Virus record (IMG/VR): IMGVR_UViG_2711768003_000013
DNA from: a virus
Taxonomy: Duplodnaviria > Heunggongvirae > Uroviricota > Caudoviricetes
DNA: 4,752 bases
Direction: 5' to 3' (one strand)
Shown here: positions 80 through 4,752 of the stretch, piece by piece
Layout of the letters: each line of letters starts with the position of its first letter
How positions within the stretch are numbered: the first letter of the stretch is position 1
Position numbers and translations under genes: made by a program
The notes under the pieces: model-generated
Database searches by the model: none
What the model saw: only the letters and a program-made list of their open reading frames with translations
What the model was told of the DNA's origin: nothing

Positions 80-343
80 GTGTCCGTTAAACTCAGGCTA
101 CCTCAGGTTATTCGCTTCTGGGCATGGGCGGATCAACAAATGATAGACGGTAATGCAGATTGTAACGCTCGCGGCGTTACAAAAAGTGCAATAGATCGCA
201 TCACTTTTATGTCTGGTTTTGCTGATGCGTTAATTCAGGTTGGATGGCTGGTCGAAAATGACGGAGGGCTTTCTCTACCTAACTTTGAACGTCATAACGG
301 AAAAAGCTCTAAAAAAAACGGGCGGTTACAAACGAGCGAGTAA
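80..343 (+). CDS. N-terminal segment (frame a) of a phage replication initiator / replisome-organiser gene
   Basis: ORF track 87 aa. All three forward frames contain stops within 1-57, so the gene starts in this window. GTG at 80 sits directly after AGGAAGGAG (71-79), which is very short spacing; ATG at 140 is an alternative start. The frame ends at TAA 341-343, but protein-like coding continues in the -1 frame from 313. Confidence 0.55.
   Translation: MSVKLRLPQVIRFWAWADQQMIDGNADCNARGVTKSAIDRITFMSGFADALIQVGWLVENDGGLSLPNFERHNGKSSKKNGRLQTSE
161..181. repeat. Perfect inverted repeat TGTAACGC-tcgcg-GCGTTACA inside the replication gene (iteron/operator-like)
   Basis: 8-bp arms at 161-168 and 174-181 are exact reverse complements. 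They share the GTAACGC core with the palindrome at 371-389 and the half-site at 406-412. Confidence 0.6.
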
Positions 344-370
344 CAAAAATACGCGAACTGAAACGAAAAG

Positions 371-389
371 GTAACGCTGCCAGCGTTAC
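371..389. repeat. Perfect inverted repeat GTAACGCTG-c-CAGCGTTAC inside the replication gene (iteron/operator-like)
   Basis: 9-bp arms at 371-379 and 381-389 are exact reverse complements with a 1-nt spacer. It is preceded by an A-rich stretch (342-370). Confidence 0.6.
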
Positions 390-414
390 ACAAACGGATC
401 AAAAAGCGTTACCA

Positions 415-432
415 GAGGAAGAGGAAGAGGAA
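415..432 (+). repeat. (GAGGAA)x3 tandem hexanucleotide repeat encoding a poly-Glu stretch in frame b
   Basis: GAGGAA at 415-420, 421-426 and 427-432; translated as EEEEEE in the linker of the replication protein. Confidence 0.8.
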
Positions 433-512
433 GATCTAAATACTGATCTCCCCCTCGCCAAAAACGAGCGTCTAAAAAATTCGAGCCGGAGGCTATTGAG
501 CTGCCCGATTGG

Positions 513-782
513 TTGCCGGAAACACTCTGGCATGAGTGGGTCCGGTTCAGACAGGCATTGCGAAAACCGATTCGAACGGAGCAGGGCGCTAACGGGGCGA
601 TACGGGAACTGGAAAAATTCCGTCAGCAGGGTTTTACACCTGAGCAGGTGATTCGACACAGCATCGCCAATGAATACCAGGGCCTGTTCGCGCCGAAAGG
701 TGTTCGGCCTGAGACGTTGCTCCGACAGGTTAACACCGTCTCGTTGCCGGACAGTGCGATCCCGCCAGGCTTCAGGGGGTAA
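513..782 (+). CDS. C-terminal DnaT-like (primosomal protein I-like) domain segment of the replication gene; coding probably begins upstream near 477-480
   Basis: The frame is open from 447. The TTG at 513 used by the ORF track has no Shine-Dalgarno. The product ends ...NTVSLPDSAIPPGFRG, closely resembling the C-terminal end of E. coli DnaT (...SEPDSQIPPGFRG, recalled from memory). Stop TAA 780-782 lies 6 nt before the dnaC-like ATG, mirroring the chromosomal dnaT-dnaC arrangement. Confidence 0.6.
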   Translation: MPETLWHEWVRFRQALRKPIRTEQGANGAIRELEKFRQQGFTPEQVIRHSIANEYQGLFAPKGVRPETLLRQVNTVSLPDSAIPPGFRG

Positions 783-788
783 CGGACC

Positions 789-1221
789 ATGAAAAATATT
801 GCGACAGGCGGCGTTCTGGAACGCATCCGCCGACTGACCCCGCCACATGTAACCGCCCCATTCAGAACGGTAGCGGAGTGGCGCGAGTGGCAACTTGCTG
901 AAGGCCAGAAACGTAGCGAGGAGATCAACCGCCTGAATCGCCAGTTGCGGGTGGAAAAAATTCTGAATCGCTCAGGCATCCAGCCGTTGCACCGTAAATG
1001 CTCGTTTGCGAATTACCAGGTGCAGAACGACGGCCAGCGATACGCGTTAAGCCAGGCGAAATCCATCGCCGATGAACTGATGACCGGGTGTACAAATTTT
1101 GCGTTCAGCGGAAAACCTGGTACCGGGAAGAATCACTTAGCGGCAGCTATCGGGAATCGCCTGCTGAAAGACGGTCAGACAGTGATTGTGGTTACCGTGG
1201 CTGATGTTATGAGCGCCCTGC
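789..1221 (+). CDS. dnaC: DnaC-like replicative helicase loader (prophage paralogue), 5' part only; 3' part lost in the N run
   Basis: The first 144 codons resemble E. coli DnaC along their length: MKN... start, NRSGIQPLHRKCSFANYQV, Walker A FSGKPGTGKNHLAAAIGN, and VTVADVMSAL. A G-rich SD (GGGGG 774-778) precedes the ATG at 789. A full-length DnaC (about 245 aa) would end near 1525, inside the N block. Confidence 0.9.
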
Positions 1222-2693: not shown

Positions 2694-3380
2694 ATGACCC
2701 CAATAAACATATTTATGACAGTTGCTGATTTCAAACGGCCCAAATTGGAGCTCCCAAACGGGGCAAACAAACTACTACTGCACTCTTGCTGTGCTCCATG
2801 TTCCGGTGAGGTGATGGAGGCGCTTCAGGCCTCGGGAATCGACTACACCATCTTTTTCTACAACCCGAACATTCATCCTCAGAAAGAGTATTTAATTCGT
2901 AAGGATGAGAATATTCGCTTTGCTGAACAACACGGCGTGCCGTTTATTGATGCTGATTACGACACAGACAACTGGTTTGAACGAGCCAAAGGAATGGAAT
3001 GGGAGCCCGAACGAGGGATCCGTTGCACCATGTGTTTTGACATGCGTTTTGAGCGGACAGCGCTGTACGCCGCTGAAAATGGTTTCAGTGTGATCAGCAG
3101 TTCACTGGGCATTTCACGCTGGAAAAATATGCAGCAGGTTAACGACTGTGGGCGGCGAGCCGTCGCGCATTATCCGGGCATGGTGTACTGGGATTATAAC
3201 TGGCGCAAGCAGGGCGGCTCGTCCCGTATGATTGAAATCAGCAAGCGCGAAAAATTCTATCAGCAGGAATATTGTGGCTGTGTGTATTCTCTGCGCGATA
3301 CCAATCTACACCGCAAATCTCAGGGACGCCCTCTTATCAAAATTGGTCAACTCCACTACGGTAAAGAAGAGAAGGAGTGA
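2694..3380 (+). CDS. queH: QueH/DUF208-like protein (putative B12-independent epoxyqueuosine reductase homologue)
   Basis: 228-aa ORF with the motifs I associate with the QueH family: [11 protein letters not shown] near the N-terminus, C-x2-C (CTMCFD) mid-protein, and EYCGCVYS near the C-terminus. No good SD precedes either ATG 2694 or in-frame ATG 2715, so the start is uncertain. Confidence 0.7.
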
Positions 3381-3494: not shown

Positions 3495-3559
3495 CCCAGT
3501 TAACATTACGCGTCCGGCAAGACGCTTAACATTAATCTGAGGCCAATTTCATGCTTTGC
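3495..3559 (-). ncRNA. Candidate sok-like antisense RNA (about 60-65 nt) complementary to the mok-like translation initiation region
   Basis: Predicted from the minus-strand promoter. The transcript would contain a composite hairpin (GUUAA-GCGUC-UUGCCG-GACGC-GUAAUG-UUAAC) followed by a U-rich stretch (GGGGCUUUUCUCU). Ends are approximate. Confidence 0.3.
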
Positions 3560-3763
3560 ACATGTAGGTTAGCCTCTTACATGCCGAAAGGCAAGGAGAA
3601 GCAGGCTATGAAGCAGCAAAAGGCGATGTTAATCGCCCTGATCGTCATCTGTTTAACCGTCATAGTGACGGCACTGGTAACGAGGAAAGACCTCTGTGAG
3701 GTACGAATCCGAACCGGCCAGACGGAGGTCGCTGTCTTCGTAGACTACGAATCCAGGAAGTAA
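3551..3763 (+). CDS. mok-like upstream reading frame (in-frame N-terminal extension of hok, 70 codons)
   Basis: ATG at 3551 with GAGG at 3538-3541 (9-nt spacing). The other two frames were checked and contain no ORF overlapping hok, so the only upstream ORF is this in-frame one. Its role as the translational coupler is inferred from the hok/sok paradigm. Confidence 0.35.
   Translation: MLCTCRLASYMPKGKEKQAMKQQKAMLIALIVICLTVIVTALVTRKDLCEVRIRTGQTEVAVFVDYESRK
3566..3594 (-). promoter_or_regulatory. Predicted promoter of a sok-like antisense RNA (minus strand: TTGCCT, 17-nt spacer, TAACCT)
   Basis: On the reverse complement, -35 TTGCCT corresponds to + coordinates 3589-3594 and -10 TAACCT to 3566-3571. 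The predicted start near 3559 points leftwards across the mok-like ATG (3551) and its SD (3538-3541). Confidence 0.35.
3608..3763 (+). CDS. hok: Hok/Gef-family type I toxin (51 aa small membrane peptide), HokD-like
   Basis: Translation MKQQKAMLIALIVICLTVIVTALVTRKDLCEVRIRTGQTEVAVFVDYESRK. As I recall E. coli HokD/RelF, it matches until the last seven residues. AAGGAGA at 3594-3600 lies 7 nt before the ATG; stop TAA 3761-3763. Confidence 0.9.
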   Translation: MKQQKAMLIALIVICLTVIVTALVTRKDLCEVRIRTGQTEVAVFVDYESRK

Positions 3764-4012: not shown

Positions 4013-4300
4013 ATGAAAATCGAAGAATTGCGTGAAATTTTTAGTGAAAATGGCCTCTATGCTGTGCGCGTTGAGAATGGAGCGATTGTCAGCCATTGCC
4101 GCATTAGATGTTTGCAATCTCAACAAAGGAAGAGCGGTGCTGTGTTATTTTATTTTTGTAATGGACTTCTGACGGACGGTTTTATTTTGCGTGAGGACGA
4201 ATTTGTCACATCATTACGGGTTTTGAAAGAGATTGGTTTTAAGGCTGGTTTTCTGCTTTTGCTGAAGAATAAACTCATCTACAATCTTGAGCAGGATTGA
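4013..4300 (+). CDS. Hypothetical small protein (95 aa), no family recognised; AT-rich accessory-type gene
   Basis: ATG at 4013 with GGAAGGA about 9 nt upstream; stop TGA 4298-4300. Visibly more AT-rich than neighbouring genes. The hydrophobic C-terminal stretch KAGFLLLLKNKLIY is noted. No motif that I can assign. Confidence 0.5.
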   Translation: MKIEELREIFSENGLYAVRVENGAIVSHCRIRCLQSQQRKSGAVLFYFCNGLLTDGFILREDEFVTSLRVLKEIGFKAGFLLLLKNKLIYNLEQD

Positions 4301-4338
4301 ACTCCTGCTGTGTAACACCGTGCCACCGGAGAAAGCCG

Positions 4339-4692
4339 ATGGCACATATACAACTGGTCAAACAAACCTCTTCCGGATTACTTCTCCCGGCGACGCCGGA
4401 GAGTTGCGATTTTCTGCATCAAATCAAAATAGGTGAGTGGATACACGCAGACTTTAAGCGTGTGTGTAACTACGCATTCCACAAGCGTTTTTTCAAACTC
4501 CTGCAACTGGGTTTCGATTACTGGACTCCGGTCGGTGGGGCGATCACGCCTCGCGAACGAAAACTGGTGTCCGGTTTCGTTGATTACCTGTGTGAATCAG
4601 TAGGCCGGGAACATACGCCAGCTCTGAGCGAAGCCGCAGAGCAATTGAGGTGTACTGGCAATAGCGGACACTACCATTTGTTCTTTTTTTAA
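4339..4692 (+). CDS. DUF1367 (YbcN-like) nin-region protein, possibly truncated at a T7 tract
   Basis: ATG at 4339 with GGAGA 8 nt upstream is preferred over the TTG at 4297 used by the ORF track. The N-terminus MAHIQLVKQTSSGLLLPATPE...FHKRFFKLLQLGFDYWTP matches my recollection of YbcN/DUF1367 proteins. The ORF stops at TAA 4690-4692 inside TTTTTTTAA, while the -1 frame is open from 4665 to the window end. Confidence 0.65.
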   Translation: MAHIQLVKQTSSGLLLPATPESCDFLHQIKIGEWIHADFKRVCNYAFHKRFFKLLQLGFDYWTPVGGAITPRERKLVSGFVDYLCESVGREHTPALSEAAEQLRCTGNSGHYHLFFF

Positions 4693-4752
4693 GCAGCCAT
4701 CTGATGATATTTTTCCCTGAAGGCTGCCGGGGAGATATTCCCCAGACGAGAG

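Follow-up and report, generated by a model that had tools for sequence, protein, structure and literature searches.

Very probable inactivation of a ydaU-like replication-initiator gene by three independent lesions in a Rac-like prophage remnant of Shigella sonnei

Results

Gene content and reading frames of the window

The window (the whole 4,752-nt stretch of DNA analysed here) is the segment between two copies of IS600, an insertion sequence of the IS3 family. The left end of one copy occupies positions 1-105 on the minus strand, where orfA begins with the codon at 41-39; its terminal inverted repeat ends ...CCTCA at 105. A second copy, oriented alike (minus strand), contributes its right end at 4646-4752, and the sequence TGAGGTGTACTGGCAATAGCGGACAC from 4646 is identical to the other IS600 end in the S. 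sonnei assembly L004 (position 4763). IS600 ends on both sides are the usual shape of a short-read contig that lies between repeated IS copies. A DUF1367-family ORF at 4297-4692 runs into the second IS600, which encodes the final codons; this gene is apparently truncated.

The genes of the module come in the order HTH repressor, Cro-like gene, YdaT, a 262-aa gene, ydaV, DUF977, QueH and HokD. The prophage remnant carries apparently intact QueH (epoxyqueuosine reductase) and hokD-type toxin genes at 2694-3380 and 3551-3763. A dnaC-like gene had been recognised downstream of the split gene, and we found there, on the plus strand from 789, an ATPase of the IstB_IS21/Bac_DnaA type, namely the 5' part of ydaV (789-1221; Pfam IstB_IS21, E 5e-7), a DnaC-like helicase loader that runs into a gap. 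This scaffold gap (1222-1693) holds 472 N's where ydaV has 312 nt; an intact ydaV of 248 aa stands in L004 and L005, both free of gaps. The mismatch in length shows the window to be a draft scaffold and rules out a deliberate, equal-length mask. The two non-N parts of the window are identical to gap-free NCBI assemblies (L004, L005, L012 and L013).

Upstream of ydaV, re-computation of the ORFs confirmed three plus-strand frames with their stops in the region 80-782. Frame a is an 87-aa ORF (80-343, TAA stop at 341-343), frame b is open at 313-651 between TAA (310-312) and TGA (649-651), and frame c is open at 447-782 between TGA (444-446) and TAA (780-782). The window contains exactly two copies of the 9-mer TCTAAAAAA (308-316 and 471-479), for a chance expectation of ~0.07, and two or more copies appeared in 0 of 200 shuffles. 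Frame a contains the heptamer A_AAA_AAC (313-319) and frame b the heptamer A_AAA_AAT (474-480), so that both copies of the 9-mer and both heptamers, each in its incoming frame, stand where the earlier note on this DNA had placed them. That note had located both frame changes on the 9-mers, and had offered single-base undercalls, a decaying prophage gene or recoding by -1 frameshifting as explanations.

Intact orthologues and identity of the encoded protein

Alignment with intact genes identified positions 106-782 (plus strand) as the 3' part, codons 35/36 to 262, of a ydaU-like replication-initiator pseudogene, in which the ancestral frame runs through a to 318, b from 319 to ~448 and c from ~449 to 782. 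In a megablast search of 5,426 complete E. coli genomes, window positions 105-1220 aligned at up to 98.8% with a gene for a 262-aa 'hypothetical protein' followed by ydaV, and intact 262-aa E. coli ORFs were found at 97-99% nucleotide identity. One RefSeq record names the gene 'phage replication initiator YdaU family protein'; the replication-initiator role is this annotation name, and we use it as a putative assignment. Full-length single ORFs make up homologue clusters of 1,716, 613, 169 and 107 members, and the names attached to members extend the family to Salmonella, Klebsiella, Citrobacter and Enterobacter, as well as Shigella flexneri.

A three-way alignment of the window with E. coli FDAARGOS_944 and phage Rac MN652886 gave exactly three differences of consequence between the window and both intact genes. 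We repaired the gene by joining the upstream fragment, dropping IS600 and one GGT, shortening an A8 run to A6 and restoring 10 bp. The repaired ORF of 789 nt encodes a product identical at 262 of 262 residues to WP_038340159.1 (E. coli), whose gene has the same neighbourhood as the lambdoid replication module of the window. A single nucleotide difference from the intact orthologue remains (GGT to GGA in codon 88, synonymous). The three segments look like protein because the inactivation is recent, as this one synonymous substitution indicates. Intact orthologues in relatives, restoration of the ORF by reversal of the lesions and recurrence of the lesions across assemblies mark the locus as a pseudogene. 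Unlike the intact gene represented by WP_038340159.1 and phrog_2509, the window copy is interrupted by IS600, carries A8 instead of A6 and lacks 10 bp, and for these reasons it cannot encode the protein.

Residues 1-262 of the intact orthologue matched positions 1-277 of 277 of phrog_2509 'replication initiation protein' (E 1.2e-89), which the window copy matched only after repair. A Pfam search with the intact protein and with each of the three segments placed none of them in a family, so that the 262-aa allele does not fall under Pfam's DUF1376/YdaU label. NCBIfam returned only a sub-threshold match to the DnaT tail (16-17 bits against a cut-off of 201), a score so far under the cut-off that the intact protein is not a DnaT orthologue. 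The DnaT-like C-terminal domain that had been noticed in the last segment was nevertheless recovered, as residues 170-262 of the intact orthologue matched the DnaT structures PDB 2ru8 (E 9.5e-5) and 9zbt chain D (3e-4). These residues align with residues 92-179 of E. coli DnaT, and the tails (...PDSxIPPGFRG) are near-identical; DnaT differs in that the C-terminal domain alone is shared with the intact 262-aa protein. The YdaU of the K-12 Rac prophage (285 aa, DUF1376), also encoded upstream of ydaV, is 81% identical over its C-terminal 124 residues, including the DnaT-like domain and the ending ...PDSAIPPGFRG, whereas its N-terminal domain is unrelated, with no alignment to the 262-aa protein and no DUF1376 match in it. 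Literature searches on ydaU/ydaV and oriJ yielded passing mentions only, with no characterisation of the initiator or the origin.

Two indels displace the reading frame

The first frameshift lesion is a run of eight A's at 311-318 (plus strand), two more than the A6 of the intact genes in the three-way alignment. The earlier note had predicted that one A was missing at this site; intact genes proved to carry A6, not A9, and it is the window that has two extra. A8 was found in 0 of the 5,426 complete E. coli genomes searched, where the best match to 270-360 (97.8% over an 89-nt span) has A6. An expansion from A6 to A8, with replication slippage as the probable cause, accounts for this junction.

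The second frameshift lesion, and the true junction between frames b and c, lies at 449-455 (plus strand), where a single TCCCCCT direct repeat remains. Intact genes read ATC-TCCCCCT-AAA-TCCCCCT-CG and the window reads ATC-TCCCCCT-CG, a loss of 10 bp, with TCCCCCTAAATCCCCCT as the undeleted form of the sequence at this locus. In the protein alignment, homology in frame b ends after 'DLPL' (...NTDLPL) and homology in frame c begins with 'PPRQKRASKKF'. The loss is a deletion between the two 7-bp TCCCCCT repeats, probably by a slipped-strand or microhomology event. It was present in 0 of the complete E. coli genomes (5,426), the best match to 405-495 being 90.1% over a 101-nt span. The two indels do not compensate each other, since +2 and -10 give -8, which is not a multiple of 3, and mutual compensation was rejected on this count. 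The combination of A7 with the deletion, which would be in frame, was not seen among 99 surveyed loci.

The proposal that both frame changes fall on the 9-mers therefore stood for the first, at the A-run, and not for the second, which is the 10-bp deletion at 449-455, ~20 nt upstream of 471-479. The second TCTAAAAAA copy (471-479, plus strand) is unchanged and is not a lesion; it reads Ser-Lys-Lys in ancestral frame c, and its tract is A6 in the window, as it is in the intact genes and in every S. sonnei assembly that we examined. An extra A had been expected in homologues here as well, and both window and homologues turned out to have A6 within an identical 9-mer. On the alignments, both copies of the 9-mer read as ancestral in-frame Ser-Lys-Lys codons in a Lys/Arg-rich linker. 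The repetition of the 9-mer is without connection to the frame changes, and the A-run heptamers are by-products of in-frame Lys codons within this basic linker.

At 415-432 the window contains three copies of a GAGGAA (Glu-Glu) hexamer, which is repeated three to eight times in deletion-bearing relatives (four ~4.8-Mb S. sonnei contigs among them, with six to seven) and two to four times in intact genes. This variation is either an in-frame VNTR or a collapse in short-read assemblies.

IS600 interrupts the gene at codon 35-36

Megablast against complete E. coli genomes matched window bases 1-109 to a multi-copy element. More than 3,000 E. coli records match the IS600 end at 99-100% in sequence annotated 'IS3-like element IS600 family transposase', with up to 43 copies per genome; in L003, orfA (100 aa, HTH_Tnp_1) and orfB (272 aa, rve) adjoin the match. 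The complete element in L004 is 1,264 bp long (4763-6026) and ends TGAGGT...ACCTCA. Its size of ~1.26 kb, the presence of orfA and orfB, the TG...CA ends and a 3-bp target-site duplication (GGT) identify it as IS600. The L004 junctions read ...GGGAAGGT followed by TGAGGTG of IS600 at one end, and CCTCA of IS600 followed by GGTTATTCG at the other, where the intact gene reads GGGAAGGTTATTCG. In the window, GGT at 106-108 (plus strand) is the right-hand copy of the duplication. The insertion point is codon 35-36, and the first 35 codons (MASNWIKLEV...ALGK) lie beyond IS600 in L004.

The start of frame a at GTG80 is consequently not a gene start, because bases 1-105 are the IS600 end. The terminal repeat of IS600 supplies GTG at 80-82 and the first nine codons of frame a, and AGGAG at 75-79 directly abuts the GTG with zero spacing. 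The 87-aa ORF is a chimera that begins inside the IS600 terminal repeat. The 1,264-bp element cuts the gene body off from its start codon, its ribosome-binding site and the upstream operon.

Upstream of IS600, the S. sonnei assemblies differ (L008, L011, L012 and L013 compared with L004, L006, L007, L009 and L010). Some have the 5' fragment of the 262-aa gene there, and others have a K-12-type Rac module (285-aa DUF1376 ydaU and a truncated ydaV). Either two prophage remnants have recombined through IS600, or the assemblies contain joins made across this repeat.

The lesions recur across assemblies and follow lineages

The A8 run, the single TCCCCCT and the A6 tract at the second site were present in 10 of 10 independent NCBI assemblies (L004-L013), four of them as ~4.8-Mb contigs. 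The exact 87-aa product, which requires A8, was found on 492 contigs named Shigella sonnei (481 index blocks), under names such as 'putative bacteriophage protein [Shigella sonnei]' and 'hypothetical protein FORC11_0721 [Shigella sonnei]'.

These results bear on the explanation that the earlier note had preferred, in which an intact gene only seems broken, owing to homopolymer miscalls in a draft. The draft character of the scaffold, with its 472-N gap for 312 nt, is in keeping with a sequencing or assembly artefact, as are the position of one lesion within a homopolymer and the few A7 alleles on other backgrounds, which are possible miscalls. However, the A8 run and the deletion were identical in every one of the independent assemblies, including the four long contigs, neither the 10-bp deletion nor a 1.26-kb IS insertion with target duplication is a homopolymer error, and the A8/A9 tracts described below are perfectly paired with the deletion, as in lineage inheritance. 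Together with the 492 contigs and the tract lengths of homologues, this refutes single-base undercalls, and we consider an artefact of any such kind exceedingly improbable. From the sequences compared, we take the lesions to be real and heritable, in the case of A8 by agreement among many assemblies.

We surveyed the tract by scanning three collections with the pattern AACGGAAAAAGCTC-N(1-12)-CGGGCGGTTACAAACGAG, which returned 99 loci; one of the collections (genome contigs) contributed only two, both A6, from S. flexneri and E. coli. The unshifted length (A6) was found at 84 of the 99, six of which have a T-to-A substitution that makes a 7-A run at unchanged length. Five loci are A7, frameshifted and on two different allele backgrounds. 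Eight are A8, six with IS600 at the same junction and two without it (L042, L093). The remaining two are A9 (L056, L089), neither with IS600 in the gene. The 10-bp deletion was present at 10 of 10 A8/A9 loci and absent from every A6/A7 locus that was readable there; A8/A9 thus co-occur perfectly with the deletion, which argues for lineage inheritance. All three lesions occur together at six loci. The four deletion loci without IS600 in the gene are at most two substitutions from the window in ydaU, and in the 5' stretch of ydaV that was sequenced three of the four match it at 100%. The A9 state (...SSKKKRAVT...) is also seen in P0002, a partial protein of S. sonnei whose 5' end is not interrupted.

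The simplest history that we infer from these alleles would place the deletion and tract expansion first, followed by A9/A8 drift in the dead gene, with IS600 arriving last; this order is read from a handful of IMG/VR isolate-derived contigs. The decay would have been stepwise, with sister lineages keeping the deletion with A8 or A9 and no IS600.

The A7 (+1) alleles (L018, L070, L101, L028 and L086) have no 10-bp deletion and leave truncated ORFs of 117-123 aa. They are either independent mutations at a frameshift hotspot or homopolymer miscalls. S. flexneri SFBU1023 (L014, 6324-7443) has A6 and no 10-bp deletion, and carries a different frameshift, in the C-terminal domain (210-aa ORF), and a ydaV truncated to 113 aa; it is an independent decay of the same module.

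Programmed frameshifting and leaky rescue

Both heptamers have the form X_XXY_YYZ and sit in the correct incoming frame, and a -1 shift at the first would yield ...SSKKK-RAVT..., a product only one Lys longer than the intact protein. These features are what would suggest that two programmed -1 ribosomal frameshifts, at 313-319 and 474-480, join the segments into one initiator. However, the split-frame organisation is not conserved: full-length homologues are all single A6 ORFs, and 13 of them, with identities as low as 59%, run without a break through 'SSKK-RAxTN' and the second site ('KKF'). A shift at the second heptamer would give nine wrong residues and leave three missing, and this heptamer lies in the incoming frame only because of the 10-bp deletion upstream of it. 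The first 35 codons, with the start codon, have moreover been lost to IS600. The 41-nt folds downstream of the two heptamers were no better than shuffled sequence (z -0.02 and 0.06), 80-nt downstream folds gave z of -1.17 and -1.95, and no AGGAGG-like (SD-like) sequence was found within 15 nt upstream of either heptamer. In E. coli, A_AAA_AAC and A_AAA_AAU are poor -1 sites compared to A_AAA_AAG. The likeness to dnaX (A_AAA_AAG) and to IS3-family orfAB consists in A-rich heptamers in the incoming frame; unlike those sites, the window has neither a conserved split frame nor stimulators, and its arrangement is a derived, not an ancestral, state. With single-ORF homologues, the IS600 cut and no stimulatory structure, recoding of this kind, the third option of the earlier note, is left unsupported and seems to us scarcely conceivable.

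An adventitious rescue would make the locus a leaky pseudogene, by RNA polymerase slippage on A8 or by low-level ribosome slippage. Runs of 8-9 A's can permit transcriptional slippage, for which nine is the usual threshold, and are hypermutable in replication too (Baranov et al., PMC1088944); A9 alleles, which are in frame at the first site, do exist in sister lineages. However, a transcript or peptide corrected at the first site still runs into the 10-bp deletion, the segment has no genuine start codon or RBS ahead of it, and the rescued product would miss the N-terminal 35 residues as well as the C-terminal DnaT-like domain. Judging from the tract, slippage on A8 may give a trace of frame-corrected product past the first site, and a leaky pseudogene as an account of the locus is very unlikely.

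Conserved palindromes within the gene

The gene also contains 19-bp palindromes of the form GTAACGC-N5-GCGTTAC at 162-180 and 371-389, two in the window for an expectation of 0, with half-sites at 325-344 and 405-413. A third palindrome lies 33 nt upstream of the gene start (L004, 4625-4643; L001, ~2366-2384). The positions -33, +160 and +367 are alike in E. coli, Klebsiella oxytoca and Salmonella homologues, whose proteins are only about two-thirds identical, and across the 99 loci the palindrome arms are invariant and the 5-nt spacers variable. These palindromes are lacking in the K-12-type ydaU, whose N-terminal domain is different. They resemble binding sites for a protein, perhaps iterons of the initiator or an in-gene origin by analogy with lambda O and ori-lambda.

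Discussion

We conclude that positions 80-782 are very probably (about 95%) the 3' four-fifths of a ydaU-like initiator gene in a Rac-like lambdoid prophage remnant of S. sonnei, inactivated by three independent lesions, namely the IS600 insertion, the A8 run and the 10-bp deletion. A full-length product would not be expected from the locus. Of the explanations raised in the earlier note, decay of a prophage gene was the right one, though only two of the three lesions had been seen and one of them was misplaced.

Hawkey et al. 2020 (PMC7373316) document the spread of IS600 and a build-up of pseudogenes in S. sonnei; they count IS600 among the five IS expanded in all Shigella and give at least 199 pseudogenes, formed by IS or other mutations, for each Shigella reference genome. 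Set beside the IS- and indel-driven pseudogenisation described there, the window locus is one such case, with no difference of substance.

A further possibility, which we hold to be very improbable, is that the A-run of the linker is a hypermutable tract (A6-A9 alleles) that repeatedly switches the prophage initiator off, the S. sonnei copy being a leaky or contingency locus. If so, a change from A8 to A9, or slippage of RNA polymerase, would restore the initiator in part. The tract also lies between conserved 19-bp palindromes, maybe the prophage origin, and its length could then matter at the DNA level.

Returning to the inactivated gene as the preferred reading, the finding carries little biological weight for S. 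sonnei, as one more prophage gene inactivated by an IS and indels in a species noted for its expanded IS and decaying genome. It may serve as a calibration case, in which apparent slippery heptamers or miscalls resolved, once intact orthologues were compared, into an IS insertion that had gone unnoticed, two added A's and a loss of 10 bp at another place. Annotators would do best to regard the 87-aa 'putative bacteriophage protein' of S. sonnei as a chimeric pseudogene fragment.
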